A stretch of DNA of 64,000 bases from an uncultured Gemmatimonadota bacterium. GTDB taxonomy: Bacteria; JAAXHH01. Both the position numbers and the translations under genes were made by a program. Of this stretch, positions 9,235 through 57,361 are shown one piece after another (positions within the stretch are counted from its first letter, which is position 1; every line of letters begins with the position of its first letter). The DNA is taken from contig OX638340.1 of the NCBI GenBank assembly GCA_951812955.1, positions 1,984,001-2,048,000 on the forward strand. The letters run 5' to 3'. The notes below the pieces were generated by a model that saw only the letters and a list, made by a program, of their open reading frames with translations, ran no database searches and was not told the origin of the DNA.

Positions 9235-10785
9235 TTACAGTGGAATGTTCCCGTGTTTCTTGGGTGGATTCGTATCTCGCTTGTTTTTCAGCATCTCCAG
9301 CGCGGAAATGATGCGGGGACGGGTCTCCTGGGGCTGAATCACTTCGTCGATGTATCCTATTTTCGCCGCGATGTAGGGATTGTCGAACTTCTCCCTGAAT
9401 TCGTCGGTCAGCGATTCCCGCAGGGCGTCGGGATCATCCGCCTCGGCAAGCTCCCTTCGGTATAGGACGTTCACCGAGGCTTCCGGACCCATGACGGCAA
9501 ACTGTCCGGATGGCCATGCGTAGTTGATGTCGGCGCGTATATGCTTGCTGTTCATCACGCAGTAGGCCCCGCCGTACGCCTTGCGCGTGACGACGGTGAT
9601 TCGTGGCACCGTGCTCTCGCAGAACGCGTAGAGCAGTTTTGCGCCTTCCTTGATGATGCCGCCGTGTTCCTGGCCGACGCCGGGGAGAAACCCGGGAACG
9701 TCTTCGAAAACGACCAGCGGAATATTAAAGGCGTCGCAAAAGCGCACGAACCGCGCGCCTTTGATCGACGCGTCGATGTCCAGCACCCCTGCGAGGGAAG
9801 CGGGCTGATTTGCGACGATGCCGGCGGTCCGGCCATTGAACCTGGCAAACCCCACGACGATATTGTCGGCGAATGCTCCATGCACTTCGAAGAAATCGCC
9901 GTGGTCCACCACTCGGTGGATCACGTCCTTGATGTCGTAGGGTTTGTTGGCGTCATCGGGTACGATGCCGGCGAGTTCCTCGTCCATGCGGTCCGGGTCG
10001 TCCGCAGGGCTCAGGCGAAGCGAGTCCTCCATGTTGTTTGAGGGCAGGTACGCCATGAGCTCCTTCACCATGGTCAGGCACGCGGGCTCGTCGGACGCGG
10101 AAAAGTGGGCGACGCCCGTCACGGAATTGTGAACGTGCGCACCGCCCAACTCGTCGAACGTCACCTCTTCGTGGGTCACCGCGCGGATGACGTCCGGACC
10201 GGTGATGAACATGTAACTGGTATCTTCCACCATGAAGACGAAGTCGGTCATCGCCGGCGAATAGACCGCGCCGCCCGCACAGGGTCCCATGATCACCGAA
10301 ATCTGCGGGATCACGCCGGAAGCCAGCACGTTGCGCAGGAAGATATCGGCATAGCCCGCGAGGCTGACCACCCCTTCCTGGATACGCGCGCCGCCGGAAT
10401 CCTTCAGACTGATCACCGGCGCCCCGTTCTTCATCGCCAGATCCATGAGCTTGCAGATCTTCTCCCCGTAGGCCTGGCCCAGCGAACCGCCGAACACCGT
10501 GAAGTCTTCCGACACGACGTAGACGGTCCGTCCGTCGATCGTCCCGTAGCCCGTGATCACGCCGTCGCCCAGGATTTCCTTGCCCTCCATGCCGAAATCA
10601 CGGCAGTCGTGCGTCACGAGGGCGCCGATCTCCTCGAAGCTGCCTTCGTCCAGGAGAAAGGCCACCCGTTCCCTGGCGGTCCATTTCCCCGCCTCGTGCT
10701 GCCGGGCGATGCGCTTCTGGCCGCCGCCTTCGGCCGCCTTTTTCCGTAGCGCGTCCAGGTGTTTCATTTTTTCGGACATGGACAT
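9235..10785 (-). CDS. Acyl-CoA carboxylase carboxyltransferase beta subunit (PccB/methylmalonyl-CoA carboxyltransferase family), about 517 aa
   Basis: KRIARQHEAGKWTARERV...GGSLG...GGARIQEG carboxyltransferase signature blocks. Start chosen at MSMSEKMKHL (10785); in-frame alternatives at 10779 and 10767. The ORF-track start at 11007 would overlap the upstream gene. Confidence 0.8.
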   Translation of the reverse strand: MSMSEKMKHLDALRKKAAEGGGQKRIARQHEAGKWTARERVAFLLDEGSFEEIGALVTHDCRDFGMEGKEILGDGVITGYGTIDGRTVYVVSEDFTVFGGSLGQAYGEKICKLMDLAMKNGAPVISLKDSGGARIQEGVVSLAGYADIFLRNVLASGVIPQISVIMGPCAGGAVYSPAMTDFVFMVEDTSYMFITGPDVIRAVTHEEVTFDELGGAHVHNSVTGVAHFSASDEPACLTMVKELMAYLPSNNMEDSLRLSPADDPDRMDEELAGIVPDDANKPYDIKDVIHRVVDHGDFFEVHGAFADNIVVGFARFNGRTAGIVANQPASLAGVLDIDASIKGARFVRFCDAFNIPLVVFEDVPGFLPGVGQEHGGIIKEGAKLLYAFCESTVPRITVVTRKAYGGAYCVMNSKHIRADINYAWPSGQFAVMGPEASVNVLYRRELAEADDPDALRESLTDEFREKFDNPYIAAKIGYIDEVIQPQETRPRIISALEMLKNKRDTNPPKKHGNIPL

Positions 10786-10895
10786 GGAATGCGATGCTCC
10801 TGCCGGGCGTGCGATTCTCCTACCGGGCACGTGCATTCGAATCACGGGGAACGCCAGCGCCTGGCCCGACTTATGCTTTTCTACGTCGTATACCA

Positions 10896-17759: not shown

Positions 17760-18472
17760 AAATGCGGCCCCTCTGTTTTATTCGTCCTTCGCAATGGTAA
17801 TTTAGTTCATACTAACGTAATATACACCACTGTATTGTCAAGATTTCAGATTTAAATCGAGTTTATTCCTAAATTCCCGACTAATACATTATGGCGTTTG
17901 TATCGCCTTTATTTTCGCCAATCACTGCACACGTGTACATTCAGAATTTAACTGGAAGCGCATCTCGGGTCAATATTAACCAGCTATACGGCTGATCTGA
18001 ATGTACGACTGATCGGTGCGAACGGTGTGGTGGGCTTTCACCATGCACAATACTGGTCCAGGTTGCACCGTAATTAAACTAGTAACCGGTCTGCCCCGAC
18101 GAGGCGCCACGGGGCCGTTACCGGTTTGCACTGCGAAGATAAAGCAGCACCGGAGTTCCGGTCTGCTCTTCGATGCATTTAGGCGTGTACCATCTACCGC
18201 CTCAAAAAGTACAGATTGAACGCTGTTGTGTCCGCGTCGGCCGTGAATGGAACAGGGTTCGATCCCAATATCCCGTCAAGTCGAGTCAACCATCGGCCAT
18301 TGTATCCTTGAGCTGGCGGAGCGGCAACCAGGTTGTCCATTCGCAGGCTCAGGATAGCGGAGTTCTCTTCCCCGGAGATCCCGGGAATACATCCGTGATG
18401 GATACATCAGACGCGCCTGATCGGCCCTGTGCGTTCAGGCGCCTTCAGTGGAAAGGCAGCTACTTTGAAACC

Positions 18473-19180
18473 ATGAACACGCAATCAAAAAGCCCAGGAG
18501 ACGTCAATCTGATACACGCCTGCCTTGAGGGTCGATCAGATGCGCAGAGTCAACTCTACAATCTTTACTTCACACAGGACAAGCCTGTTCACTTCTGGGT
18601 ATACCAGAAAGCATACTGGATTCCAGCAGGTGAAAAGGAGGATATCCTGAATGATATCTACATCGCGGTCATTCAAAGCCTGCCCCAGTTCGAATTTCGC
18701 AGTGCATTGGGCACCTATATTACCCGCATTGCAAAGATCAAGTGCCTGGACGCAATGCCTTCTCGGCTAGGCGTCGCCCGGGGGAAGGGGATCAAGTTCG
18801 TCGATATCGACTGGTTCGCATCGAACAACGAGTCAGGGTTTCAGATCGAAGACACGGATCCCAACAACAGACCGGACCGGTATTTGAGACAAAGGGAAGA
18901 AGAAGAACTGGTTTTCCTGTTGCATACGGCCCTGAAGTACTTTACGGGACAGCGATGCAGGAATGTCCTCTACATGTACGTCAAAGAACTCAGAGGCGAA
19001 ATGAGCAGGGAGGACATTGCGGAATCGCTCGGAGTACCGGTTAAACGCATGGGACAGATGATCTACGACTGCATGTATCGGCTTCGCCGTAAGGTACAAA
19101 GTAGATTTCGAGATTACGAACATTTTGCCAATTGCGTATGTGAAGGTATTCAACGTCCCAAACCCAATAACAAGGAGTAG
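18473..19180 (+). CDS. ECF-type (sigma70 family) RNA polymerase sigma factor, about 235 aa, in a low-GC islet
   Basis: Region 2 (ILNDIYIAVIQSLPQFEFRSALGTYITRIAKIKCLDAMP) and region 4 HTH (MSREDIAESLGVPVKRMGQMIYDCMYRLRRK). Alternative upstream starts at 18407 or 18173. GC about 48% versus about 65% in the flanks. Confidence 0.7.
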   Translation: MNTQSKSPGDVNLIHACLEGRSDAQSQLYNLYFTQDKPVHFWVYQKAYWIPAGEKEDILNDIYIAVIQSLPQFEFRSALGTYITRIAKIKCLDAMPSRLGVARGKGIKFVDIDWFASNNESGFQIEDTDPNNRPDRYLRQREEEELVFLLHTALKYFTGQRCRNVLYMYVKELRGEMSREDIAESLGVPVKRMGQMIYDCMYRLRRKVQSRFRDYEHFANCVCEGIQRPKPNNKE

Positions 19181-19182
19181 CC

Positions 19183-19869
19183 ATGCATCAGCGAGTTGCG
19201 GGGCGCGGCAACTTCGACAGTTTGCCGGATCGTACTCAGATCGCTGACCTCCTGCGAAAATACTGTGAGCTGCTGGTTTCTTCATGTCCTACCTCGGAAA
19301 CACTGTTGGTATTTCATGAAGATCCGAATCAGCTTCCCACATGCGAGAGAAAGACCCTGGGAGGGCACCTTGGAATCTGTCTCGACTGCAGGGACAAACT
19401 TCGATGGCTGGAGGAATCTGAAGCTTCGTCCTATACCGATTCCATCGCACGTGTAATCTGGTATATGCTCAATGTACACCATCCATCCGAGGTGGCAGCC
19501 TCAAAGTACTTCTCATCCGCCAGGAGTGCAGGCAATCCCGACTCGCTTTCCACACAGAATTTGCAACCGGATGCTGCAAAAACGGCCACAACCCGCAAGA
19601 CTTCGGCGCCTTTTTTCGCCAGCGGGGATGGAGCGTTGTGTGGGGAAATCCATCAGGACAGGAATCAACGGGTGTATTTAAGGATTTTTCGGCTGCCCAG
19701 GTCGTTTCAGTGGCATGCCCTGCATATTCGAGCAATAACGTTTGACCGTCGCGTACTGGTGAGCAGGTCCAGGACCATATCGGGACCGAAATTCCCGATC
19801 GATCATCCTCCTCGCATTACGCCCGGTGACATGGACAAGGTCGAACTCGGTCTGATCCCGCTGCGTTGA
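19183..19869 (+). CDS. Putative zinc-binding (ZAS-type HxxxCxxC) anti-sigma factor, 228 aa
   Basis: Its ATG is 3 nt after the sigma stop, so the two are translationally coupled. The N-terminal domain contains C-x7-H-x3-C-x2-C (CERKTLGGHLGICLDC), the ZAS motif. No TM segment. Confidence 0.5.
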   Translation: MHQRVAGRGNFDSLPDRTQIADLLRKYCELLVSSCPTSETLLVFHEDPNQLPTCERKTLGGHLGICLDCRDKLRWLEESEASSYTDSIARVIWYMLNVHHPSEVAASKYFSSARSAGNPDSLSTQNLQPDAAKTATTRKTSAPFFASGDGALCGEIHQDRNQRVYLRIFRLPRSFQWHALHIRAITFDRRVLVSRSRTISGPKFPIDHPPRITPGDMDKVELGLIPLR

Positions 19870-19879
19870 GCGGGATCAG
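19852..19879 (+). terminator. Hairpin overlapping the anti-sigma stop codon (10-bp stem, 8-nt loop); possible terminator
   Basis: ctgatcccgc-tgcgttga-gcgggatcag. The downstream tract is only weakly T-rich. Confidence 0.25.
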
Positions 19880-20099
19880 CGCCGTTCCGGTGTATTCGAC
19901 CGGATTCCACTGGTTGTTTGCGGTACGTAACCCAGGCAATAAGATGTTGACAATCGACTGGGGGCGAGTACGTTACGAAGTATCTGAATGATGCGCGAAG
20001 CAGGCTTCGCGCATATACGGAATTGGAGGAATACCGGTACCTTCAAACCGGCCGGGTCGATGATCCCGCCATGGTACCGTCCATGAAGGAACCAACTGC

Positions 20100-21272
20100 A
20101 TGGAGATGGTTTATCCGAGGAGGAAAACGCGGGAAGTCCGCGTAGGAAACATCACGATCGGCGGCCAGCATCCCATTGTCGTGCAGTCGATGATCACGGA
20201 GAACACGCGGGACGTCGCAGCGTGTGTGGAAGCGATCATCCGATTGCATGAACTGGGATGTGAAATCGTACGAGTGACCACACCTACGCTCGCGGACGCC
20301 CACAGCCTGCGGGAAATCAAGCATACCCTCGTTCTGAATGGTGTGGACGTGCCCCTGGTAGCGGATGTTCATCACCAGGGAACCCGAATAGCCGAGGAAG
20401 TCGCCAGGTCTGTAGACAAGGTACGTATCAACCCCGGCCTGTTCGTATTCCAGCGTCTGGCAGATTCCATCGAATACTCACCCGAGGAATTCGAGGCCGC
20501 GAGACAAAAGGTGGCCGATGATCTGGCCCCCGTAATCAAGGTCTGCCGGGAGCGGGACATCGCCATGCGCATCGGTGTGAACCACGGATCCCTTTCGGAC
20601 CGCATGACCGTGACATACGGAGACACGCCAGAGGGCATGGTGGAATCCGCGCTGGAATTCATTCGAATTTGCGAGTCGCACGACTACAGAAACCTGATCG
20701 TATCGCTTAAAGCGTCCCGCGTGCCCGTCATGATTCAGGCCAACCGCCTCATGGCCGGCCGTATGGACGAAGAGGGGATGGACTATCCGCTGCACCTGGG
20801 TGTCACGGAGGCCGGTGACGGCGAGTATGCCCGGGTCAAGTCGACCTCCGGAATAGGCACCCTGCTGGCAGAAGGTCTCGGCGACACCATCCGGGTATCG
20901 CTCGCCGAGGATCCCGCCAAAGAAATCCCGGTCTGTTACGATATTCTCCAGTCTCTGGGCCTGCGACGTACCAAGGTGGAGTTTATCGCATGTCCTTCCT
21001 GCGGACGAACCAAATTCAACCTGGAAAACGTGCTTGCGGAGGTCAAGGCGGCCACCGACCATCTCGCGGGTCTCGACATCGCCGTAATGGGATGCATCGT
21101 CAACGGCCCCGGAGAGATGGCCGATGCCGATTACGGGTATGTCGGACGCGCCAACGGGATTATCTCCCTCTACCGCGGGCGTGACTGCGTCAAGATGAGT
21201 GTTCCGCAGGAACGGGGTGTCGAGGAACTGGTCGACCTGATCAAGTCGGATGACCGTTGGGTAGATCCTTGA
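20100..21272 (+). CDS. ispG: 4-hydroxy-3-methylbut-2-en-1-yl diphosphate synthase (flavodoxin), 390 aa
   Basis: [25 protein letters not shown] and C-terminal CPSCGR Fe-S cluster cysteines. Canonical IspG/GcpE. Confidence 0.9.
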
Positions 21273-22092
21273 TCGATGGCAGGTCTCTATTCAGCATTTC
21301 CATGACATCCTTCAGCTCAAAAACGAAACCGAACGCCAGAGAGACGCGCCACAGCGCAAGTTCCTTGGCCGCTTCCGTTTCCGCCGTTTCCCGGTTTTCC
21401 ACGGCGGTCACCGCCTGGCGAATCGTGGAACAGATTATCCCGTAACGCCGCATGTCCAGCATGCCACCCGGCGACATGAGCAGGCACCAGTTGATAGCAA
21501 ATCCCATGTAGATGAGGTGGTTGATGCCGGCGGCGCGGCAGAGGGCGGCCAACTGGCGGCCGTTCTCAGCGACACCCTCGCCCGATTCCGGCCGTGCCTG
21601 GGGAGCGAAATCGATACGGTCGAATCCGCGCTTGATGTCGGCGGTGTTCCGGGCCCCTGGAAAAACCCGTTCGACCCGGAACCTGTTCAGTTCCTCGTAA
21701 ACGGGATCGCGGTCGACGGACTCCACCGGATCCGGTTCCGGGCCCGCCAGTTCGACGGCAGCCCTGTATCCCGGGTGATTCTCGTGATACCGGCCGCCGC
21801 CCACGACGTGGAACAACTTCATGCCATTCGCCCGGATAGCCTGGAGCAGCGGGGGAAACACCTCGCGGCTTATCTCCTCCGCCCTGGGAAAGTACTCGAC
21901 GGCGCGGTACCATCCCGCGTACTCCTCCAGGCTTCCCGTATCCCACGCGTGCATGACGACAAACGCCGTGTGGTCGGTGTCGATCTTTATTTCCGACCGC
22001 TGCCAGCCCCCGTAACCCTGACCCGGCGTTTCAAGTGCATAATCCGCATCGAATTGCTGGTAATACCCGGCGGGTATATTGATTATTGCCAT
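21241..22092 (-). CDS. Isochorismatase-family cysteine hydrolase, 283 aa
   Basis: [16 protein letters not shown] catalytic-Cys block typical of the isochorismatase/CSHase family. Paralogous to the gene at 24488-25297. Its 3' end overlaps ispG convergently by 32 nt. Confidence 0.65.
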
Positions 22093-22315: not shown

Positions 22316-23629
22316 ATGCCCGACACGTTGACCGTCATAGACAATCGGACCGGCAAGGAATACGAGATTCCCATCATGTACGGGACCTATCCCAGGTACG
22401 GCGCGGCGATCCCCACCACGGACTTTCGACAGATCAAGGTGTCCGAAGACGACTTCGGCCTGCTGGGGTACGATCCGGCATTCAACAACACCGCCTCCTG
22501 CCGAAGCAGCATAACCCACATCGATGGGGAAAAGGGCATACTGCGCTACCGGGGCTATCCCATCGAGGACCTGGCCGTTAAAAGTTCCTTTCTCGAAGTC
22601 GCCTTCCTGATCGTTCACGGCATGCTGCCGACCCGGGCCGAGCTCGAAGAATGGTCACACGACATCACCCATCACGCGATTGTCCATGAGAACATCAAGA
22701 AATTCATGGACGGATTCCGGTACGACGCCCATCCCATGGGAATCCTGATCAGTACGGTTGCCGCGCTGTCCACCTTCTATCCGGAGGCCAAGCAGATTCG
22801 CGACGTGGCCATACGAAACGAACAGATCCACCGGCTTATCGCCAAGATTCCGACCATCGCGGCCTTTGCTTACCGGCACAGTCAGGGCTTTCCCTACACC
22901 TATCCGGACAATGGCCTGGGTTATTGCGGCAACTTTCTGTCCATGATGTATAAGATGACGGAACAATACTCGCCCGATCCCGTGCTGGAAAAAGCGCTGG
23001 ACGTGGTTTTCATCCTGCACGTGGATCACGAACAGAACTGCAGTGCCAACGCGATGCGCAGCGTGGGCAGTTCGCTGCCCGATCCCTACGTTTCCGTGGC
23101 CGCCGCCGCCGCCGGGCTGTACGGCCCCCTGCACGGTGGCGCCAATGAGCAGGTGCTGCATATGCTTCAGGAAATCGGTCATATCAGCCGGGTACCCTCA
23201 TACATAAAAAAGGTCAAGCAGGGGGATATCCGGCTCATGGGCTTCGGCCACAGGGTGTACAAGAACTACGACCCGCGCGCAAGGATTCTCAAGGAAATGA
23301 CCCACCGGGTACTGGGTGTCACCGGCAAGAACACGCTGCTGGACGTTGCCGTGGAACTGGAGCGGATCGCCCTTGAAGACGATTATTTCGTCAATCGCAA
23401 ACTCTATCCCAATGTGGACTTTTATTCAGGTCTCATCTACCAGGCCATGGGATTCCCGCTCGAAATGTTCCCAGTGCTTTTCGCCATTCCCCGCACCGTG
23501 GGCTGGCTGGCGCAATGGGCGGAGATGCTGGACGATCCCGACCAGAAAATCGCGCGACCCCGCCAGATCTACACCGGTGACGATGTCTGCGAATACGTAC
23601 CGATAGAGGACCGGTTGCAGGTCGGTTGA
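22316..23629 (+). CDS. gltA: Citrate synthase (type II, hexameric-type sequence), about 437 aa
   Basis: MPDTLTVIDNRTGKEYEIPI... plus catalytic His/Asp blocks (GFGHRVYKNYDPRA). The ORF-track start at 22274 is an extension. Confidence 0.9.
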   Translation: MPDTLTVIDNRTGKEYEIPIMYGTYPRYGAAIPTTDFRQIKVSEDDFGLLGYDPAFNNTASCRSSITHIDGEKGILRYRGYPIEDLAVKSSFLEVAFLIVHGMLPTRAELEEWSHDITHHAIVHENIKKFMDGFRYDAHPMGILISTVAALSTFYPEAKQIRDVAIRNEQIHRLIAKIPTIAAFAYRHSQGFPYTYPDNGLGYCGNFLSMMYKMTEQYSPDPVLEKALDVVFILHVDHEQNCSANAMRSVGSSLPDPYVSVAAAAAGLYGPLHGGANEQVLHMLQEIGHISRVPSYIKKVKQGDIRLMGFGHRVYKNYDPRARILKEMTHRVLGVTGKNTLLDVAVELERIALEDDYFVNRKLYPNVDFYSGLIYQAMGFPLEMFPVLFAIPRTVGWLAQWAEMLDDPDQKIARPRQIYTGDDVCEYVPIEDRLQVG

Positions 23630-23670
23630 ACGAACGTCACCCGCGGATGAACGAACGTCACCCGCGCGGA
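23627..23670. repeat. 21-nt unit duplicated in tandem (TGAACGAACGTCACCCGCGGA ×2), starting exactly at the gltA stop codon and containing the convergent amidohydrolase stop
   Basis: tgaacgaacgtcacccgcgga tgaacgaacgtcacccgcgcgga. The period is a multiple of 3, so both convergent genes get a second in-frame TGA 21 nt after the first. Confidence 0.8.
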
Positions 23671-24521
23671 ACCCACCTGTAGGCTTCCCTGCTGTTGCCC
23701 CCCATGATTTTGTCCAGGACATCCGACCCCTTCGATTCGAAGCAGGCTATGGCCAGAGACTGTACCTGCCGGTAGGTAGCGTATCTCCAGGATACCGGCC
23801 AGTTGCTGGCATACAGCAGCCTGTCCTCTCCAAATGCGTGCCAGAGCACATCAAGGACCGGTCTGTAATAGGCCGGATCCTCCGGCGGCGGCGTATCCTG
23901 CGCCAGTTCCACCATACCCGATATCTTGCAGAAAACGTTGGGATGGGCTGCGACAGACTTAATGCCGGATGCCCATTCGTCATCCGGCCGACCGCCGGTC
24001 ACCGGCACGTGGGCGAGATGGTTCAGCACAATTCTGAGTCCCGGAAACCGCGCGGCGCAGGCAGCCACGCCAGGCAGCCACTCCTTGCCCACGAGCAGGT
24101 CCAGCGTGAGGTCGTGGGCGGCGAGTTGCTCCAACGCCCTGAAGTACACTGGGTCGTCCACCGGCGCCTTGCCCAGTCGGATGCCGTAGAACAGATCATG
24201 GCCCGCAAACCGGTTCAGGTCCGATTCGAAACCGGGATCCGGAGGTTCAAGGTGTCCCACCAGGCCCAGCAGGAACGGATCGGCCTCGGCAAGGTCCAGG
24301 ACCCACTGGTTGTCTTCCACCCAGGCGCTGGCTTCCACCACGACCGTTCCCGTGACGCCTTCAGACAACACTTCCCTTTTGAAATCATCGGGCATGATAC
24401 GCCGGTAGAGAAACTGGTCGCCGCGGTCCGGCCACGGCACGCCCTGCGGCCGGGTGGGGTCGTAGAAATGGGTATGGGTGTCGACGATCAAGTTATGTTC
24501 CTCTCTGAAACCTTCTGGCAA
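23658..24521 (-). CDS. Amidohydrolase-2 family metal-dependent hydrolase (TIM barrel), 287 aa
   Basis: N-terminal HTHFYD metal-binding motif and overall amidohydrolase_2 profile. Start overlaps the downstream isochorismatase-like gene by 34 nt. Confidence 0.7.
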   Translation of the reverse strand: MPEGFREEHNLIVDTHTHFYDPTRPQGVPWPDRGDQFLYRRIMPDDFKREVLSEGVTGTVVVEASAWVEDNQWVLDLAEADPFLLGLVGHLEPPDPGFESDLNRFAGHDLFYGIRLGKAPVDDPVYFRALEQLAAHDLTLDLLVGKEWLPGVAACAARFPGLRIVLNHLAHVPVTGGRPDDEWASGIKSVAAHPNVFCKISGMVELAQDTPPPEDPAYYRPVLDVLWHAFGEDRLLYASNWPVSWRYATYRQVQSLAIACFESKGSDVLDKIMGGNSREAYRWVPRG

Positions 24522-28466: not shown

Positions 28467-28541
28467 CGGGGTGTAGCGCAGTCCGGTCAGCGCACCTGCT
28501 TTGGGAGCAGGGGGTCGGGGGTTCAAATCCCCCCACCCCGA
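28467..28541 (+). tRNA. tRNA-Pro (anticodon TGG)
   Basis: Cloverleaf folded by hand: acceptor CGGGGTG/CACCCCG, D-arm GCGC/GCGC, anticodon stem CCTGC/GCAGG with loop TTTGGGA (34-36 = TGG), T-arm GGGGG-TTCAAAT-CCCCC, discriminator A. CCA not encoded. Confidence 0.85.
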
Positions 28542-28614
28542 TTACCACTACCCGCGCGCCACGCTCATTTCCTGCCTTATCCAACGGTTCCCCCACGCAC
28601 AGTACACTCATTTC

Positions 28615-29358
28615 CTACGGTTCGCGGCTTCGGATTTCCACGTATCTTTCCATTCTGGCTACCTCGCCGTCGTCCACGTACTTCCCGATTTCACGACGGA
28701 ACTGCTCCATGTCGGTATAGGGACGGTACTCCTTGAACTCGTGGAGCATCCGGTCGCCCACACCCGGTACCGCCAGTATCTCCTCGTCGGTGGCCGTATT
28801 GAGATCGATGGGAACGAATACGTACTGTTCCATGCGGGCGACCTCGGCGTCGTCCACGTACTTGCCCATTTCCCGCCGCCACTGTTCGATGACGAGATAG
28901 GGCCGGTATTCCTTGAACTCGTGAAGCATCCGGTCACCCACGCCGGGCACCAGGAGTATCTCCTCGTCAGCGGCCGTGTTCAGGTCAATAGGGATAAACA
29001 TCTGCGCATAGAGCGCGGCGGTCTCATCGCTGCTTACGTGCTGCGTGACCAGCGCATCCAGTTCGCTCATGTCCGAAAAGGGGCGGGCTTCCACCACCAT
29101 GTCCGCAAGCTCCGCGGTCATTCCCGGCAACATGGCCAGTTCGTCGCTTCCGGCGAGGTTGGGATTCAGGACCGTCAGTACTGATTCGGCCGTAGATTCG
29201 ACGTCGGCGGGATCCGCCTGTTCCGCCGTAGATTCGACGTCGGCGGGATCCGCCTGTTCCGCCGTTTCGGAACCGCCGCATCCGCCGATCCCTACCGCGA
29301 AAAGGCAGGCAAGAAAAGTAGTCAGCAGGACGGTCTGGGATTGCTTGAATGTGATCAT
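28615..29358 (-). CDS. Lipoprotein with three helix-hairpin-helix (ComEA-like) DNA-binding modules, about 248 aa
   Basis: Lipobox (FAVGIGGCGG). Three modules, two nearly identical (IPIDLNTA[AT]DEEIL[LA]VPGVGDRMLHEFKEYRPY), match the ComEA HhH signature (DLNTATxEELxxLPGIG). Start at MITFKQS (29358); the ORF-track start at 29496 is an extension. Confidence 0.6.
   Translation of the reverse strand: MITFKQSQTVLLTTFLACLFAVGIGGCGGSETAEQADPADVESTAEQADPADVESTAESVLTVLNPNLAGSDELAMLPGMTAELADMVVEARPFSDMSELDALVTQHVSSDETAALYAQMFIPIDLNTAADEEILLVPGVGDRMLHEFKEYRPYLVIEQWRREMGKYVDDAEVARMEQYVFVPIDLNTATDEEILAVPGVGDRMLHEFKEYRPYTDMEQFRREIGKYVDDGEVARMERYVEIRSREP
28668..29027. repeat. 180-bp (60-codon) tandem duplication inside the ComEA-like gene, encoding HhH modules B and C
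   Basis: Both copies begin cgtcgtccacgtactt (28668 and 28848). About 80% nucleotide identity over 180 bp. Confidence 0.6.
29192..29263. repeat. Perfect 36-bp tandem duplication (two copies) encoding TAEQADPADVES twice in the ComEA-like lipoprotein linker
   Basis: gtagattcgacgtcggcgggatccgcctgttccgcc occurs twice back to back. Confidence 0.85.
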
Positions 29359-30551: not shown

Positions 30552-30651
30552 GGGTTCAGTCGTCCTCCCGGCATGATTCCAGCCCGGTTCGGCCGGTAAG
30601 GCGTTTCAGTCGACCAGAATGCTTGACCATATTACTCCGATATGCTTCATT

Positions 30652-30710
30652 ACGCTACCAATGCAAACGCCACAACAGTGCAATACGCTACCAACACAAA
30701 ACGCTACCAA
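30652..30710. repeat. Three direct copies of ACGCTACCAA (two extended to ACGCTACCAATGCAA) in the divergent SRAP/sulP intergenic region
   Basis: ttACGCTACCAATGCAAacgcc ... caatACGCTACCAAcacaaaACGCTACCAATGCAAgcc. Confidence 0.6.
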
Positions 30711-30907
30711 TGCAAGCCAGATTCTGGGAACGGAGAAGGTGCCTGCAATCATCGTGGTTTGGGAATCGTTGATTCGAGTGGCATTCAACCGGCAATCGAT
30801 CCCGATTGTAATCGTTCGATGACGAGCGTCCGTTTCCTGCCTATTAGGCGAAGATAGGGATATTCGCGCGCGAGGCAAGGCCAAACGCACTGAGAATAGA
30901 GGGTCTT

Positions 30908-32524
30908 TTGAACTACAATCTGGACACTTTCCGCGGTGACCTGTTCGGTGGGATAACCGCGGCTGTAGTGGGCCTGCCGGTTGCCCTCGCGTTCGGTGTC
31001 GCTTCGGGCATGGGCGCGGCGGCCGGCCTGTACGGTGCGATCGGCGTAGGTTTGTTCGCCGCGCTGTTCGGGGGTACCCGATCCCAGATTTCCGGCCCCA
31101 CGGCACCCATGGCCGTGGCCATGGCGGTCATCATAACGGAACACGCCAGTACAATGAGCGAAGCCCTGATCGTGGTCATGATGGGTGGGTTTCTGCAGAT
31201 CCTGCTTGGCGTGTTGAGGATCGGCCGTTACGTCGCCTACACCCCCCACGTGGTGATCTCGGGATTCATGTCAGGTATCGGCCTGATCGTCATGCTGATC
31301 CAGGCCCTGCCCTTCATCGGGGCGCCCGCCGCGCCGGGCGGTGTCGTCGGCACCGTTGGAGTGCTTTCAGAAGCCATAGGGGACATCAATTACAGCGCTT
31401 TCGTTATCGCCTTCATCACCTTGGCCGTCGGTGTGCTCTGGCCGAGAAGTCTGTCGAAAGTCGTACCCGGCACCCTGGTGGCTCTCATCGCCGGTACGCT
31501 ACTGAGCGTGCTCTGGTTCACCGAAGTACCCGTAATCGGGATCATACCCGCCGGCCTCCCTGAGATTATCCTCGTGCCGCCCACGGCCGACTTCCTGCTG
31601 CATGCCATTGAACCCGCGCTCATCCTCGCCCTGCTTGGTTCCGTGGACAGCCTGCTTACTTCCCTGATCGCCGACTCGCTCACGGGCACGCGCCACCGCG
31701 CCGACCAGGAACTGGTGGGGCAGGGCATCGGCAACATGGTGGCGGGATTGATCGGCGGACTCCCCGGAGCTGGTGCTACCATGGGCACAGTAACGAACAT
31801 CAGGGCCGGCGGCACGACCCGTTTGTCCGGCGCTATCCGCGCGGTCATACTGCTGGTGCTCCTCATGGGGCTGGGCTGGATTGTCGAGCCGATCCCCCAC
31901 GCCGTCCTGGCGGGCATATTGATGATGGTTGGCTGGGACATCGTCGACTGGCGGATGCTTACGCGAATCCACCGTCTCCGCCGGGAACATCTCATCATCC
32001 TGTTGATCACCCTGAGCTTGACCGTATTCGTCGACCTGGTCACCGCGGTGGCGATCGGACTGATCGTCGCGGGCATGGCCCACGCCAGGAAGCTGGAAAA
32101 CCTGGAACTGGACAGCGTGGTCTCCGTACCGCTGCTTGACCGCCAGTTTTTCACACTGGAAGAAGACACCTCCAGAATAGACGAATTCTCGGCACGCGTA
32201 GGACTGGTTGCGCTCAGGGGGAGTTTCACCGTTGCTTCGTCCAAGAAACTCGTGGGCGTGATCAGTGAGGACATCAAGGAACATGACGTTGTCATCTTCG
32301 ATTTCTCCGGAGCCACCTACATCGACGACAGTGCGGCCATGGTCGTCGAACAACTGATGGACGTCGCCACGAGCGAAGACACCGAGTTTGTCGTCATGTC
32401 GCTATCGGGATCCGTCGAGGATACCTTATCCGCCCTCGGTATCATCCAGCGCGTACCTGAAGCACACATTGTGGAAACGCTGGATGAAGCGCGCGTGGTA
32501 GCGAGGGAGATGCTCGGGATGTGA
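30908..32524 (+). CDS. SulP family anion transporter with C-terminal STAS domain, 538 aa
   Basis: N-terminal sulfate transporter motif (FRGDLFGGITAAVVGLPVALAFGVASG), multiple TMs and a C-terminal STAS fold. Confidence 0.85.
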   Translation: MNYNLDTFRGDLFGGITAAVVGLPVALAFGVASGMGAAAGLYGAIGVGLFAALFGGTRSQISGPTAPMAVAMAVIITEHASTMSEALIVVMMGGFLQILLGVLRIGRYVAYTPHVVISGFMSGIGLIVMLIQALPFIGAPAAPGGVVGTVGVLSEAIGDINYSAFVIAFITLAVGVLWPRSLSKVVPGTLVALIAGTLLSVLWFTEVPVIGIIPAGLPEIILVPPTADFLLHAIEPALILALLGSVDSLLTSLIADSLTGTRHRADQELVGQGIGNMVAGLIGGLPGAGATMGTVTNIRAGGTTRLSGAIRAVILLVLLMGLGWIVEPIPHAVLAGILMMVGWDIVDWRMLTRIHRLRREHLIILLITLSLTVFVDLVTAVAIGLIVAGMAHARKLENLELDSVVSVPLLDRQFFTLEEDTSRIDEFSARVGLVALRGSFTVASSKKLVGVISEDIKEHDVVIFDFSGATYIDDSAAMVVEQLMDVATSEDTEFVVMSLSGSVEDTLSALGIIQRVPEAHIVETLDEARVVAREMLGM

Positions 32525-32554
32525 GCTCCGTTCTTGGGATGTGAGCCCCTTGAA
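32515..32554. repeat. 20-nt tandem duplication (GGGATGTGAGCYCC...) including the sulP stop codon
   Basis: gggatgtgagctccgttctt gggatgtgagccccttgaat. The first copy holds G-M-stop of SulP. Confidence 0.6.
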
Positions 32555-32576: not shown

Positions 32577-34328
32577 ATGATCGCACGAAGGAGACCATGC
32601 CTCCCGTTCTGCCTGATCGGGCTCTTCGCCCTGTTGTTGAATTCGGCCTGCGGCGACGACCCCTCCGATCTTCCCGGCCATCCGTATGTTGAGACCATTC
32701 CCGGCGAAGAAGCGGTGGCCAGGCCGCTTCCGGCGGACGCGGCGCCCCCCGAACGCCAGGTATACCGCTACTTTTCCAATGAACCCTCCAGCCTGGACGT
32801 GAGCGTCGCCCTGTACGAATCCCTGGGCAGCGCCTTTCTCTTCGAACGGCTTTGCATGATCGACGAGAACGAAGAACTCACCCCGGGCGCGGCGGACCGG
32901 TGGGAGCGTTCATCGGATGGAAGGACCTGGACGTTCCACCTGCATCCCGGCGCACGCTGGAGTGACGGCACGCCCGTCACCGCCCACGACTTCGAGTACA
33001 CGTTCAAGCGCCTGCTCCACCCTGACAGCGGAAACGTATACGCCTTCTTCTACTACGACATCAAGGGCGCAAGGGCGTACAACCAACGAATGAGCGACGA
33101 CCCGGACCTGCTCGGCGTGCGCGCGATCGACGACCTGACCTTCGAAATCGAAACGGAAGAACCCTGCGCCTACATGCCTTACGTTACCTCGTACACAGCC
33201 TCTTCCCCGGTACCCCGATGGCAGGTGGAGAAATACGGCGCAAGGTGGACCGAAGCCGATCGGTGCGTGAGTAATTCCGCGTACCGTCTTGATGAATGGG
33301 TCCAGGGCAAGTACATGACCTTCCGCCTCAACCCCCACTACCGAGGCAACCATCCCGGCCATTTCAGAAAGATCGTACGCTTATTCTCGGGAATGGCGGG
33401 GACCGGCAGCGCGTCCGGCGGCGTGGGACTGCTGCCGTACGAGAACGACGAGGTCGAGCTGGTCGGCGTGGGAAGTCCGGCCGATCTCGACCGCATCAGA
33501 AACGATCCTGAACTGGGCGGACAGCTATGGAAGTTCAACGGCGTGTCCACGGTGTACCTGTTTTTCCGGACCCGGGAACCACCCCTGAACGATGTCCGCG
33601 TGCGTCAGGCCATCGCGATGGCCATCGACAAACAGACCATCGCCGACGTACTGTTCAAGGGAGCCGTCCGACCGGCCTACGGTATGCGTCCTCCCAATTT
33701 TCCCGGGTACGTTGGAGAAAAGTTTCGGCATCTGCAGCGGTTCGACCCGGAAACCGCGCAACGCCTGCTGGCCGAAGCCGGGTTCCCCGGTGGAAAGGGG
33801 TTTCCCGCCATCGAAATCTGGTTGAGGGACGCGCCGCCTTCGTCACAGAGCGGCCAGGCCGCGCAGATGATCCAGGAACAACTGCACGAAATCCTGGGAA
33901 TCCGGCTCGAGATCCTCAACATGCAGGCGAACGCGTTCAACCAACTGATGTACGAATGGAAAATTCCGATCGGCATGGTGGGCTACGGCGCTGATTTTTC
34001 GGATCCGCAAAGCCTGCTCGGTGTGCCCTGGCGCTCCCAGCCCCGGGGATTCACCCGGCACGACTGGGACAACGCAAGATACAATAACCTGATCGACCGG
34101 GCCCGCGTGGAAGTCGATCGCGACAGAAGAATGCAGCTTTATGAAGAAGCGGAACGGATTCTGACCTCCGATGTCGGCGGGGCCTTTTTATGGCACGACC
34201 TCAGGTTTCAACTCCGCAAACCGTGGCTCAAGGGACTGAAACGGGACCGCGCGGGTTTCTATCCATTCTGGGAGAACAACACTGTGTACACCGAAATGTA
34301 CATCGGCAACGAGAGAATGGACGGATGA
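32577..34328 (+). CDS. ABC transporter substrate-binding protein, family 5 (peptide/nickel/oligosaccharide type), lipoprotein, about 583 aa
   Basis: Lipobox (LLNSACGDD). SBP_bac_5 profile throughout. Orphan: no permease or ATPase adjacent. Confidence 0.75.
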   Translation: MIARRRPCLPFCLIGLFALLLNSACGDDPSDLPGHPYVETIPGEEAVARPLPADAAPPERQVYRYFSNEPSSLDVSVALYESLGSAFLFERLCMIDENEELTPGAADRWERSSDGRTWTFHLHPGARWSDGTPVTAHDFEYTFKRLLHPDSGNVYAFFYYDIKGARAYNQRMSDDPDLLGVRAIDDLTFEIETEEPCAYMPYVTSYTASSPVPRWQVEKYGARWTEADRCVSNSAYRLDEWVQGKYMTFRLNPHYRGNHPGHFRKIVRLFSGMAGTGSASGGVGLLPYENDEVELVGVGSPADLDRIRNDPELGGQLWKFNGVSTVYLFFRTREPPLNDVRVRQAIAMAIDKQTIADVLFKGAVRPAYGMRPPNFPGYVGEKFRHLQRFDPETAQRLLAEAGFPGGKGFPAIEIWLRDAPPSSQSGQAAQMIQEQLHEILGIRLEILNMQANAFNQLMYEWKIPIGMVGYGADFSDPQSLLGVPWRSQPRGFTRHDWDNARYNNLIDRARVEVDRDRRMQLYEEAERILTSDVGGAFLWHDLRFQLRKPWLKGLKRDRAGFYPFWENNTVYTEMYIGNERMDG

Positions 34329-34350
34329 AAGGGCACAGAGGGCACAGGAC

Positions 34351-35175
34351 ATGAATGACCCATATCGTATTGACGGGGCAATCGCGGTCGTGACCGGCGC
34401 GGCGCAGGGTCTCGGACTGGGTATCGCGGAACGGCTGGCACGCGGCGGCGCGACCGTGGTGATGGCGGACTTGCAGCTCGAAAAGGTCGAGGCGGAAGCA
34501 GGGAAACTCCGAGAACAGGGGCTGGCGGCAATTCCCAGGCCTCTGGACGTTTCGGATAGCGCATCGGTAAGTGCATGCTTCGATGCGGTAGCCGAAGCGC
34601 ACAGGCGGCTCGACATCCTGGTCAACAACGCCGGGGTCGGCCAGAAGGTAGCGCCCGTCGTCGAACTGAATGATTCAGAATGGGACCGGGTCATGCGGGT
34701 CACGTTGACCGGGACCTTCTACTGCTGCCGGGCCGCGGGCGGGATCATGGAACGGCAGGAGTCGGGATGCATCGTGAACATCTCTTCCATCAACGGACAG
34801 AATCCGGCGGCCCTGGTAGCGGCCTACAACGCGGCCAAGGAAGGCGTCATCAGTCTCACGCGGACCCTGGCCCTGGAGCTTGCGGCTTACGGAGTCCGGG
34901 TGAACGCCGTGTGTCCGGGCCCGGTATACACCGAGTTCAACCGGTCGAACATGGCCCAGCGCAGCAAGACCCTGGGATTGACCGAAGAGGAGATGATCGA
35001 ACGGATTCGTGGCGCCATCCCGCTAGGCAGGTGGGGCGAACCGGAAGACATCGCGAATGGAGTCGCGTTCCTCTGCAGCCCCGCGGCGGGCTGGATCACC
35101 GGGGAAGTCCTGCGGGTGAGCGGCGGCATGGAGGGAGTTGCGGCCGCTCCGCCGAGGCGGGATTCCAGGGGATGA
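34351..35175 (+). CDS. SDR family NAD(P)-dependent oxidoreductase (FabG-like), 274 aa
   Basis: TGAAQGLG Rossmann motif, NNAG, catalytic YxxxK (YNAAK). Confidence 0.8.
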   Translation: MNDPYRIDGAIAVVTGAAQGLGLGIAERLARGGATVVMADLQLEKVEAEAGKLREQGLAAIPRPLDVSDSASVSACFDAVAEAHRRLDILVNNAGVGQKVAPVVELNDSEWDRVMRVTLTGTFYCCRAAGGIMERQESGCIVNISSINGQNPAALVAAYNAAKEGVISLTRTLALELAAYGVRVNAVCPGPVYTEFNRSNMAQRSKTLGLTEEEMIERIRGAIPLGRWGEPEDIANGVAFLCSPAAGWITGEVLRVSGGMEGVAAAPPRRDSRG

Positions 35176-35195
35176 GATGGCCGTTTCAGCCCCGC

Positions 35196-35229
35196 CTTCC
35201 TACACCCCGGCCTTTCTACACCCCCGCCA
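35196..35229. repeat. 16-17-nt tandem duplication (GCCTTYCTACACCCCG) including the stop codon of the sugar ABC ATPase gene
   Basis: gccttcctacaccccg gcctttctacacccccg. The second copy carries the CTA (TAG) stop of the minus-strand ATPase gene. Confidence 0.55.
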
Positions 35230-43252: not shown

Positions 43253-44038
43253 TCAAACAGCCTGCCCGCTCCGGGATGGGGGCACTGTACGTTCGCTCCG
43301 GGATGGGGATGCCGCCCGATCGTCGCGGGATGCAGTTGCCGCACGGTCGCTCCGGGATGGGGGCGCCGCACGGTCGCCGGTCCGCAGCGGAGGCAGGGTC
43401 AGGACGTTGCTGAAGGCCGTTCCGCCCGAAACGACGAATTCCAGGGCTTCCTCCACGGGCAGGTCCACGGGTATCACGTCCCGCCGAGGCACGATCACGA
43501 CGCGGCCGGCCGCGGGATTGGGTGTGTTGGGAACGAAGACGCTGACCATATTCTCGCGATCGTCCTCACTGGGGATCTCCCCGGCTATGAAAGCGATCAT
43601 CCACGCCCCGCGGCGCGGGTACTCCACCAACACCGTCTTCCATGTGCGGGTCTCACCCACCTTCGCGAAGGAGTCCAGCAGTTTCTTTACCGGGTGGTAG
43701 ACTCTTCGTGCGACGGGCAGCCGCATCATCTGGTCCTCGAACCAGGAAATCAACCTGCTGCCCAGAACGTTCGACGCTACGAAGCCGGCCAGGTAGATCA
43801 CGACCAGCATGAGCAGAATTCCCAGTCCCGGTATGCGGGTATCCAGGTCCAGCAGTCCCCGGATGACCGGTTCGGCGAACGAGTCCAGCCAGGTCAGTAG
43901 CCAACTCAGTATGGCGACCGTGGCGGCGAGCGGGATCAGCACGAGCAATCCCGACACCATCGTTCGCTTCACGTTCTGACGGATACGCGCTATCGCCGAA
44001 GGGCGCTTCAAATTGGAATCGAGATGGAAGGTGGACAT
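43253..44038 (-). CDS. DUF502-family membrane protein with a C-terminal 9-aa tandem-repeat tail, about 261 aa
   Basis: Two N-terminal TMs and the DUF502 core. C-terminus PPSRSDRAA/TASRDDRAA/SPSRSERTV/PPSRSGQAV. Start at MSTFHLD (44038). Confidence 0.6.
   Translation of the reverse strand: MSTFHLDSNLKRPSAIARIRQNVKRTMVSGLLVLIPLAATVAILSWLLTWLDSFAEPVIRGLLDLDTRIPGLGILLMLVVIYLAGFVASNVLGSRLISWFEDQMMRLPVARRVYHPVKKLLDSFAKVGETRTWKTVLVEYPRRGAWMIAFIAGEIPSEDDRENMVSVFVPNTPNPAAGRVVIVPRRDVIPVDLPVEEALEFVVSGGTAFSNVLTLPPLRTGDRAAPPSRSDRAATASRDDRAASPSRSERTVPPSRSGQAV
43267..43374. repeat. Four tandem copies of a 27-bp unit (CGCTCCGGGATGGGGGCNCCGCACGGT) encoding the DUF502 C-terminal repeats
   Basis: Direct reading of copies at 43267, 43294, 43321 and 43348. 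Confidence 0.8.
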
Positions 44039-56321: not shown

Positions 56322-57239
56322 ATGATCATGAATATCGTTATCCTGGGTTCCGGAGGCGCCATTCCAACCCTGAAGCGAAACCTGCCCTCCGTCGCCGTAC
56401 AGTGCGAAGGGCGCGTTTTCCTTTTCGACTGCGGCGAGGGTACCCAGACGCAGATGGTCCGTGCAAAGCTGCCCCTGAGCAAGATCGAGCGGATCTATAT
56501 TTCCCACCTGCATGGCGACCATGTCATGGGCCTGCCCGGCCTGTTGATGACGATGGGACAGATACCTCGGGAACGGGCGCTCTACATCGATGGACCGCCG
56601 GGCATCTCTGACTTCGTGGAAGGCAACCGGCGATTCCTGGGCTACCAGTGCCCCTTTCCCGTTATCGTCACGGAGCACAGGGGCGGAACGGTATCGGAGG
56701 ACGACACCATTTTCGTCGACGCCGTGCCCGCGGATCATAGTTGCTTTACACTGGCCTTCGCCTTGCAGGAAAAGGAGCGCCCCGGCCAGTTTCAGGTTGA
56801 AGAAGCGAGACGACTGGGCGTACCCCCCGGACCGTTCTATGGACGGCTGCAGGCGGGCGAAACCGTTAAACTGGGGGATGGACGTCTAATCGAGCCCGGA
56901 CAGGTACTGGGTCCCACCCGGCGGGGACGGAAGATCGTGTATGCCACAGATACCCGGCCGTGCGACCAGGTAGTCTCGCTGGCCCTCGAGGCGGACGTGC
57001 TGATCCACGACGGCATGTTCAGCGACGACCTGCGGGCGCAGGCCCGCCAGAAGCACCACTCGACGGTCGTGCAGGCGGCCCGTATCGCCCGGCGAGCAAA
57101 AGTCGGCACCCTGGTGCTGACCCATATCAGTTCCCGCTACATGCAGGACGGACCGCTGGCCGCCGAGGCGCGCAAGATCTTCCCCGCCGCGCGGGTCGCG
57201 CGGGATCTCATGGAATTCAACGTGCCCATGTACAAGTGA
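56322..57239 (+). CDS. rnz: Ribonuclease Z (tRNA 3' endonuclease, metallo-beta-lactamase fold), 305 aa
   Basis: HxHxDH motif (HLHGDHVMG) and short-form RNase Z profile. Confidence 0.8.
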   Translation: MIMNIVILGSGGAIPTLKRNLPSVAVQCEGRVFLFDCGEGTQTQMVRAKLPLSKIERIYISHLHGDHVMGLPGLLMTMGQIPRERALYIDGPPGISDFVEGNRRFLGYQCPFPVIVTEHRGGTVSEDDTIFVDAVPADHSCFTLAFALQEKERPGQFQVEEARRLGVPPGPFYGRLQAGETVKLGDGRLIEPGQVLGPTRRGRKIVYATDTRPCDQVVSLALEADVLIHDGMFSDDLRAQARQKHHSTVVQAARIARRAKVGTLVLTHISSRYMQDGPLAAEARKIFPAARVARDLMEFNVPMYK

Positions 57240-57281
57240 GGCCGGCCCGACAGGCATAGTGAGGCCGGCCCGGCAGACTAT
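57236..57281. repeat. 23-nt tandem duplication (GTGAGGCCGGCCCGRCAGRCTAT) beginning on the rnz stop codon
   Basis: gtgaggccggcccgacaggcata gtgaggccggcccggcagactat. The first copy contains the rnz TGA. Each copy contains the GGCCGGCC palindrome. Confidence 0.6.
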
Positions 57282-57361
57282 GCAATACCGCCTGAGACGC
57301 TTCCGCCCGTTACCGGGGAACCGTGCCGCCGGGACTATGCGGGATGGGTCTATTCCGCGGG

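Follow-up and report, generated by a model that had tools for sequence, protein, structure and literature searches.

Tandem repeats that overlap stop codons are already known in Yersinia pestis, in which 10 of 88 variable-number tandem-repeat (VNTR) loci are of this kind and vary in copy number without effect on the open reading frame (PMC3689786). The units of these VNTRs, which are used in MLVA, are locus-specific, about 8–45 nt long and arranged head to tail, and they hold the stop codon of the adjacent reading frame; the seryl-tRNA synthetase gene is among those affected (PMC3689786). Mycobacterial MIRUs form a dispersed family with shared sequence and an internal ORF that, within operons, is coupled to the next gene (PMC12548453). 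As MIRU-VNTRs they occur between genes as tandem units, adjoining or overlapping the stop and start codons on either side, and vary in copy number. The Y. pestis survey and the MIRU description were all that was found in the literature on tandem duplications being enriched at the ends of bacterial genes. Two further classes bear a likeness to the repeat described below: tandem back-up stops, in which a second in-frame stop follows the first within a few codons, and REP/BIME clusters, in which short repeats gather directly downstream of stop codons, in many cases between convergent genes. REPs are palindromic, are dispersed in hundreds of copies and are mobilised by RAYT transposases.

The junction analysed here lies in a window of 64 000 nt from an uncultured Gemmatimonadota bacterium. 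The citrate synthase gene gltA (22316–23629, + strand; PF00285, E = 3e-135) encodes 437 residues, and public contigs encode the identical protein. It converges on an Amidohydro_2 gene (23658–24491, − strand; PF04909, E = 1e-35) with a spacer of 28 nt in the window. The exact 277-residue amidohydrolase was present in the collection searched; this is the length called in public assemblies, and the longest ORF extends to 24521. Two tandem copies of a 21-nt unit span positions 23623–23668. Repeat unit 1 (CGGTTGAACGAACGTCACCCG, 23623–23643), located by TRF, by sequence and by an anchored duplication scan with 20/21 identity, contains the gltA stop codon (TGA, 23627–23629, + strand), the 7-nt ancestral spacer and a spare in-frame stop for the amidohydrolase (TCA, 23637–23639). 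Repeat unit 2 (CGGATGAACGAACGTCACCCG), which together with a partial third unit (CGCG) occupies 23644–23668, contains a spare in-frame gltA stop (TGA, 23648–23650) and the stop on which the amidohydrolase gene terminates (TCA, 23658–23660). The unit is thus made up of the gltA stop, the original 7-nt spacer, the amidohydrolase stop and the last eight coding bases of the amidohydrolase, with CG microhomology at its edges.

TRF reported a single array at 23623–23666 (period 21, 2.1 copies, 95% matches), and an exact 19-mer (TGAACGAACGTCACCCGCG) is common to both copies (23627–23645 and 23648–23666), which bears out the claim of an earlier note on this DNA that a tandem 21-nt duplication is placed on the gltA stop. 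The same note had described 21-mer copies starting at the TGA. The tandem copies stand, but in that phase the last two bases differ (...GCGGA versus ...GCGCG), and the better phasing, CGG[T/A]TGAACGAACGTCACCCG, gives a match of 20/21. The note was right that both convergent genes have a second in-frame stop 21 nt past the first, which follows because the unit contains both stops and 21 = 7 × 3. No further match to the 19-mer was found in the window even with three mismatches allowed (chance expectation 0.04 matches), and among 109 loci it was absent outside the gltA/amidohydrolase junction; the unit is therefore locus-specific and not dispersed. In this respect, and in not being palindromic, the 21-nt unit is unlike REP/BIME elements. 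It also differs from MIRUs, since it is unique and lies between convergent genes, and every locus here carries a separate unit that was formed from the local gene end.

Copy number at the junction was compared among strains that are 96–99% identical across the 5 kb flank. One unit was found in L001, two in the window, L084 and L094, three in L095 and four in L090–L093; the register of the array was identical in all strains compared, and no insert between units occurred in any allele. In L001, gltA and the amidohydrolase gene lie 7 nt apart. This single copy at first suggested a recent duplication specific to the window, a reading that was ruled out by the two-, three- and four-copy alleles and by the local tree, in which every lineage but L001 carries at least two copies. 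The array is thus ancestral and dynamic, and from these sequences the single copy of L001 is more likely to be a contraction. The four-copy allele is identical across four independent assemblies (NCBI, JGI and Logan), so it is no assembly artefact. Alleles with one, two or three copies encode a GltA of 437 residues and an amidohydrolase of 277 residues throughout. More distant species carry independent arrays at the gltA junction, with units of 31 nt in three copies (L006), 25–26 nt in two copies (L004 and L005) and 13 nt in two copies (L073). The comparison of orthologous gene ends in relatives, which the earlier note had proposed, found stop-anchored arrays whose copy number varies between strains. 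The duplication is an ordinary copy-number-variable minisatellite (VNTR) lying across the 3' ends of both genes of the convergent pair. Like the Y. pestis VNTRs it has head-to-tail units that are locus-specific and contain the stop codon, with a copy number that varies between strains and leaves the ORF intact; unlike them, it has the stops of both convergent genes within a single unit.

Similar arrays were found at other gene ends. The earlier note had reported a wider pattern of stop-anchored duplications, which holds for argS (150–221, 26-nt unit), SulP (32511–32550, 20 nt), an ABC ATPase gene (35190–35228, 16 nt), rnz (57235–57280, 23 nt) and a ComEA-like gene (about 28552–28622, 33 nt), but not for the MBL-rhodanese gene, the end of which shows only a weak reiteration of CCGCGG. 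At least six gene ends in 64 kb therefore carry a stop-overlapping array, compared with ten loci among 88 VNTRs in the 4.6-Mb genome of Y. pestis; as there, housekeeping genes (argS and gltA) are affected. The argS, SulP, ABC ATPase, rnz and ComEA-like units have no sequence in common, and the units start 0–23 nt before the stop codon without a fixed offset. Between strains, copy numbers differ for SulP (2 versus 6), the ABC ATPase (1 versus 2.4) and argS (1 versus 2.8). The rnz end has no array, two copies of 23 nt or two to three copies of 16 nt, the end of the ComEA-like gene has units of 22, 32, 33 or 43 nt, and a Cupin_2 gene outside the window has its own stop-anchored array with 1, 3 and 4 copies.

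Four differences between the argS copies, all apparently synonymous, had suggested that the copies were diverged alleles joined by homology-facilitated illegitimate recombination. This reading was ruled out by comparison with the single-copy sequence of L102–L108, against which the changes are split evenly between the coding and the non-coding copy, two in each, so that chance and coding constraint suffice. As a separate observation, the palindromes CCGCGCGG, CCGCGG and GGCCGGCC lie inside several of the units and are absent from those of argS, the ComEA-like gene and the Cupin_2 gene; they are a possible candidate for a slippage or restriction-site cue.

In the four-copy allele (L090–L093) the first gltA TGA has become GGA and GltA terminates on the TGA of the next unit. 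The resulting protein (P0128) has 444 residues instead of 437, a gain of seven codons, and ends in ...RLQAGGTNVIRG. This use of a second in-frame stop after loss of the first is what is expected of tandem back-up stops, for which the earlier note had considered selection. Retention of the duplication as a fail-safe, with in-frame stops limiting the damage from read-through or stop loss, would accommodate both the cost of only seven residues in L090–L093 and a period of 21 that is in frame for gltA and the amidohydrolase alike. It is nevertheless very improbable. In 10 of the 13 independent gene-end arrays the period (26, 20, 16, 23, 16, 32, 22, 31, 25–26 and 13 nt) is not a multiple of three, so that the extra stops are out of frame. 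The share that is divisible by three (3/13, against an expected one third; one-sided p = 0.86) shows no in-frame preference, the point that the earlier note had proposed to check. Moreover, L001 does well on a single copy, stops have been freely lost from internal units (GCCAGCC in L094 and GCCACTC in L090) and the spare amidohydrolase stop is used by none of the amidohydrolase variants examined. With most sister arrays out of frame, nothing indicates that a back-up function has been selected; unlike selected tandem stops, the second in-frame stops here follow arithmetically from duplication of a 21-nt unit.

The junction was also considered as a functional 3'-end element (an RNA structure, a terminator or a protein-binding platform) or as the footprint of a mobile element (a target-site duplication or an att remnant). 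A weak stem between GCAGGTCGGTT and AACCCACCTGT, contributed by the two coding ends, encloses the array, and the repeat lengthens the 7-nt spacer. The fold z-scores, however, were −1.5 for the + strand and −0.5 for the − strand and were no better with one copy, no Rfam family matched the array (a search of the window with Rfam returned two tRNAs only) and no terminator-like site was present at the junction (23600–23700). Such sites were not enriched in the 20–40 kb part of the window either (12 found versus 14.6 expected). The RNA-structure or terminator reading, the former of which the earlier note had also put forward as a target of selection, was rejected on the non-significant folding and the terminator scan. 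The confinement of the unit to the gltA/amidohydrolase junction likewise ruled out a dispersed repeat or mobile-element footprint. A target-site duplication of fixed length does not fit units of 13–43 nt in up to six copies across loci, and no integrase, transposase or recombinase appeared in the nearby gene lists. Both kinds of origin are accordingly given very little credence.

The array is probably a locus-specific minisatellite that was generated by slippage and has been retained because it is silent, with the spare stops as a by-product. Changes in copy number would come about through slipped-strand mispairing or through unequal recombination of one unit with another, a step to which the head-to-tail structure, the copy-number series and the CG microhomology at the unit edges all point. 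The first unit supplies the stop of gltA and the last unit the C-terminal codons and stop of the amidohydrolase, while the units between them are untranslated spacer. This is shown by the alleles, which, apart from L090–L093 with seven additional GltA codons, encode the same protein ends; the array is thus silent for both proteins and would be tolerated for that reason. Short tandem duplications would arise genome-wide and survive mainly at gene junctions. There the short spacers (7–80 nt) would oblige nearly every silent duplication to include a stop codon, which together with purifying selection may explain the association with stops.

The frequency of such events was compared with 73 control loci from other phyla. 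Stop-spanning duplications were present at 5 of 47 gene ends in the window and at 5 of 748 in the controls (p = 1e-4), or at 4 of 46 when counted as independent events (p = 0.001), which makes such arrays about 9–14 times commoner per gene end here, in a comparison that used about 64 kb with its flanks and crude gene calls, the window itself having been flagged for this very pattern. Arrays were found at three of six convergent junctions in the window and at one of 84 in the controls. The general tandem-repeat load, in coding or other intergenic sequence, was just about 1.4 times that of the other phyla. Stop-anchored repeats at gene ends are thus unusually common in this lineage, a real effect, and slippage filtered by selection does not by itself account for the size of the excess.

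These figures would be expected if this lineage were prone to form duplications immediately after stop codons or at convergent junctions, possibly through conflicts between replication and ribosome-uncoupled RNA polymerase, through R-loops or through topoisomerase action where convergent transcription meets. The repeated striking of the same junctions with differing unit lengths and the lack of intrinsic terminators at these junctions also speak for such a process. It is considered unlikely all the same. With spacers of 7–80 nt before duplication and units of 13–43 nt, most silent placements include the stop in any case, and the unit boundaries have no fixed relation to it. Between the window and one strain, seven indels of at least 3 nt were found over 52 kb, and in most of them tandem copies have been added or removed. 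A stop codon is included in two; a third falls within a stop-anchored array already present and a fourth 30 nt past a stop. The remaining three are in a 5' UTR, in a divergent region and within a gene, the last of them in frame. In the sister species the excess loses significance when the ascertained junction is left out (2/89, p = 0.17).

For the gltA locus itself little changes, as both proteins are unaffected. The 444-residue GltA allele shows cleanly, in nature, how a stop-spanning in-frame duplication buffers a later loss of the original stop codon. The arrays are ready-made markers for strain typing: about 70 kb contains at least seven loci that differ between strains of 95% identity or more; the species cluster from which they come, of uncultured Gemmatimonadota, is apparently host- or environment-associated. 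The roughly tenfold excess at gene ends, which other tandem repeats do not match, is peculiar and can be measured; if it extends genome-wide, it would point to a lineage-specific bias in the formation or persistence of duplications at gene ends. It is doubtful that duplication in this lineage is focused on gene ends, chiefly at convergent junctions, and tied to termination, to uncoupling of ribosome and RNA polymerase or to supercoiling. Were this the case, such a process, and not uniform slippage with a filter of selection, would make the short tandem arrays, and often enough for one junction to be struck independently in sister strains and species.

The sequence at 23621–23672 reads GTCGGT TGAACGAACGTCACCCGCG GA TGAACGAACGTCACCCGCG CGGAAC and was detected by TRF as a single array at 23623–23666 (period 21, 2.1 copies, 95% matches). 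The 19-mer TGAACGAACGTCACCCGCG has two exact occurrences in the whole window, at 23627 and 23648, and no further site was found there when up to three mismatches were allowed (chance expectation 0.04). The array is situated at the convergent 3' ends of the citrate synthase gene (gltA, 22316–23629, + strand; PF00285, E = 3e-135) and an Amidohydro_2 gene (23658–24491, − strand; PF04909); public assemblies contain identical sequences of both proteins. gltA terminates at TGA 23627–29 and the next in-frame TGA is at 23648–50; the amidohydrolase gene terminates at the TGA read from TCA 23658–60, with a further in-frame TGA at 23637–39. A 21-nt duplication on the gltA stop that provides both convergent genes with a second in-frame stop, as described in the earlier note, was thus confirmed from the sequence and by TRF, but the copies are less exact than stated: 21-mers phased from the TGA differ in their last two bases, and when phased from CGG they match at 20 of 21 positions.

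The origin of the spare stops is apparent from L001, a related genome with 99% identical flanks. It carries one unit with the stops 7 nt apart (GGT TGA ACGAACG TCA CCC), which shows that the unit consists of the gltA stop, the entire spacer, the amidohydrolase stop and eight amidohydrolase coding bases. Since the unit holds both stops and its length is divisible by three, each gene automatically acquires a second in-frame stop, and no explanation beyond unit content and length is needed. At 23612–23629 gltA has four additional codons (LQVG) relative to sister species, the TAG of which is TTG here; in species with 11–15% flank divergence the gene ends four codons earlier, at a TAG following IEDR. 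In the window's species a change from TAG to TTG lengthened gltA to its current TGA and cut the spacer to 7 nt before any duplication took place. Upstream, GcpE (ispG, 20100–21272, + strand) and a convergent 283-aa gene (21241–22092, − strand) share 32 nt (21241–21272), an overlap called identically in all related strains. The stretch at ∼17800–20000 is low in GC (52% versus 60–63%) and possibly horizontally acquired; its two genes, of 261 and 228 aa in L001, match no Pfam family and were missed by the codon-usage gene caller.

The junction was compared across genomes of the same species cluster that are 96–99% identical over 5 kb of flank. One copy is present in L001, two near-identical copies in the window, two mutually diverged copies in L084 and L094, three near-identical copies in L095 (with GGA joined to TGA as in the window) and four copies in L090–L093. 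The last is one identical allele in four independent assemblies (NCBI GCA_001753035.1, JGI 3300027386, GCA_026713285.1 and Logan SRR8092756), which rules out an assembly artefact. In a local distance tree the window pairs with L001 (1.0%), followed by L095 (2.2%), L090 (3.2%) and the pair of L084 and L094 (4%). Because all lineages on this tree except L001 hold at least two copies, the array is old and the single copy of L001 is more likely to be a contraction than the ancestral state. Copy number has both risen and fallen, and the locus is a minisatellite rather than a one-off duplication. In the four-copy allele the first TGA is changed to GGA and GltA is extended by seven codons, ending at the TGA of the next unit; the corresponding public protein (P0128) has 444 aa and the C-terminus ...RLQAGGTNVIRG, compared with ...RLQVG in the window. 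This allele is a natural instance of a spare stop in use. Stops have also been lost freely in internal units (GCCAGCC in L094, GCCACTC in L090). In species whose flanks differ by 11–15%, arrays of independent origin are built from the amidohydrolase 3' end, namely 31 nt × 3 in L006, 25–26 nt × 2 in L004 and L005, and 13 nt × 2 in L073; L002 is without an array at this junction.

All other window genes named in the earlier note as part of a wider pattern were checked. The pattern held at argS, SulP, the ABC ATPase, rnz and the ComEA-like gene; at the MBL-rhodanese gene, whose end is convergent with rnz, only a weak threefold CCGCGG reiteration was found (57353–57385). The argS array (150–221, − strand; stop 198–200) comprises 2.8 copies of a 26-nt unit, made up of the last eight codons plus the stop and out of frame in its period; one copy is present in L102–L108, and two synonymous-looking differences lie in coding and two in non-coding copies. 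At SulP (32511–32550; stop 32522–24) a 20-nt unit containing the last four codons and the stop is present in two copies, as in most strains, and in six in L089 (L089 14156–14273); a small hairpin (GCCCCTTGAATGCAGGGG) follows the array. At the ABC ATPase (35190–35228, − strand; stop 35216–18) the 2.4 copies of a 16-nt unit are unique to the window, whereas L082, L088, L089 and L084 have one; direct repeats of GG[C/T]GGGG, imperfect and of a kind typically prone to slippage, flank the array. A two-gene block at ∼32577–35175 (SBP_bac_5 and SDR) is missing from L084-type strains (L084–L087), the deletion edges being the SBP start codon and the repeat unit adjoining the ABC ATPase stop. At rnz (57235–57280; stop 57237–39) two 23-nt copies are accompanied by a decayed third; L096 has none and L097–L101 have an independent 16-nt array. 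The ComEA-like gene (stop 28615–17), convergent with tRNA-Pro, has 33 nt × 1.6 in the window, 43 nt × 2.3 in L089, 32 nt × 2 in L004, 22 nt × 3 in L003 and one copy in L005 and L073; the tRNA-Pro(TGG) spacer (28467–28622) carries a 10-nt insertion in the window besides the stop-anchored repeat.

Frequencies were determined with a constant detector (stop-anchored, period 9–45, gapless score at least 13) on our own codon-usage gene calls, using as controls 73 loci from other phyla obtained with the same citrate synthase query. Stop-spanning duplications were found at 5/47 testable window gene ends versus 5/748 control ends (Fisher p = 1e-4; 4/46 and p = 0.001 when counted as independent events), a comparison of small samples and crude gene calls in a window flagged for this very pattern. 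Convergent junctions carried a tandem duplication in three of six cases in the window and in one of 84 in the controls. The recent tandem-repeat load was ∼1.4 times that of controls, within genes and in other non-coding DNA alike, and stop-spanning repeats per gene were 8.7 times as frequent. With the pre-selected junction left out, the excess in sister species was not significant (2/89, p = 0.17). Beyond the window, 45 stops (∼20 distinct gene ends after removal of strain redundancy) yielded one positive junction: Cupin_2, ∼1.2 kb past the right end and not pre-selected (L083 18894–18953; also L096 and L097), where a 15-nt unit (GTAGCGCCACAAYGG), in frame and starting from the TAG, is present in four, three or one copies and the array ends 9 nt upstream of the aldolase start codon. 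A roughly ten-fold gene-end excess over other phyla is probable, but not proven.

The earlier note had proposed back-up stops, 3'-end RNA structure or a mutational process at termination sites. Among the independent periods (26, 20, 21, 16, 23, 16, 33, 32, 22, 15, 31, 25–26 and 13), three of 13 are multiples of three, which does not exceed the one-third expectation; selection as back-up stops is thus very improbable. Structure fared no better: the 101 nt around the array gave fold z values of −1.5 (+ strand) and −0.5 (− strand), the one-copy allele being similar, Rfam matches in the window were limited to two tRNAs, and terminator-like sites numbered 12 versus 14.6 expected in 20–40 kb, with none at the gltA/amidohydrolase junction. 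It is very improbable that the array is a functional RNA, a terminator or the footprint of a mobile element. A mutational process focused on gene ends would account for the repeated arrays at the same junctions and for the excess over other phyla, which slippage plus filtering leaves unexplained, but it is unlikely. The seven indels of at least 3 nt between the window and one strain (52 kb), most of which add or remove tandem copies, are spread out: two are stop-spanning, a third falls within an existing stop-anchored array, a fourth is 30 nt past a stop, and the others are in a 5' UTR, in a divergent regulatory region and, as an in-frame 15-nt duplication, in SulP. Moreover, pre-duplication spacers of 7–80 nt compare with units of 13–43 nt, so that most protein-silent placements must contain a stop; together with purifying selection this produces the stop association.

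Most probably, units are gained and lost by slippage or unequal exchange and retained where silent. Slipped-strand mispairing or unequal exchange is suggested by the head-to-tail arrangement of the units, by the series of copy numbers, by copies that are near-identical in some strains and diverged in others, and by short microhomologies at unit edges (CG at the gltA junction, GG[C/T]GGGG at the ABC ATPase locus). Arrays persist where protein and start signal stay unaltered, as the constancy of protein ends across alleles shows. The two other window tandem repeats away from stops are in-frame coding repeats, 36 nt (12 aa) × 2.2 directly past the lipobox of the ComEA-like lipoprotein (29185–29265) and 27 nt (9 aa) × 4 at the C-terminus of DUF502 (43267–43377), with slight copy-number differences among strains. 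Gene starts also carry duplications, as seen at 10774–10828, where a 20-nt tandem duplication with the Shine–Dalgarno motif GGAG ends 4 nt upstream of the carboxyltransferase start codon, at which ATGTCC is doubled (MSMS...). In the divergent SRAP/SulP region (30640–30720) the motifs ACGCTACCAA/TTGGTAGCG occur three to four times, possibly as an operator array, and L001 has one 16-nt unit fewer than the window.

In Y. pestis the stop codon lies inside the unit at 10/88 VNTR loci, and according to the authors copy-number change leaves the ORF unchanged (PMC3689786). The gltA junction has all four features by which this class was defined here: its units are in tandem, vary in number among strains, enclose a stop and are specific to the locus. 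It belongs to the documented stop-codon-overlapping VNTRs. It differs from MIRU-like elements, since its unit is unique and its genes are convergent; REP/BIME, terminator and target-site duplication identities were considered and rejected. The sole unusual trait of the array is that two convergent genes have their stops within a single unit, and its host lineage has many stop-anchored arrays.
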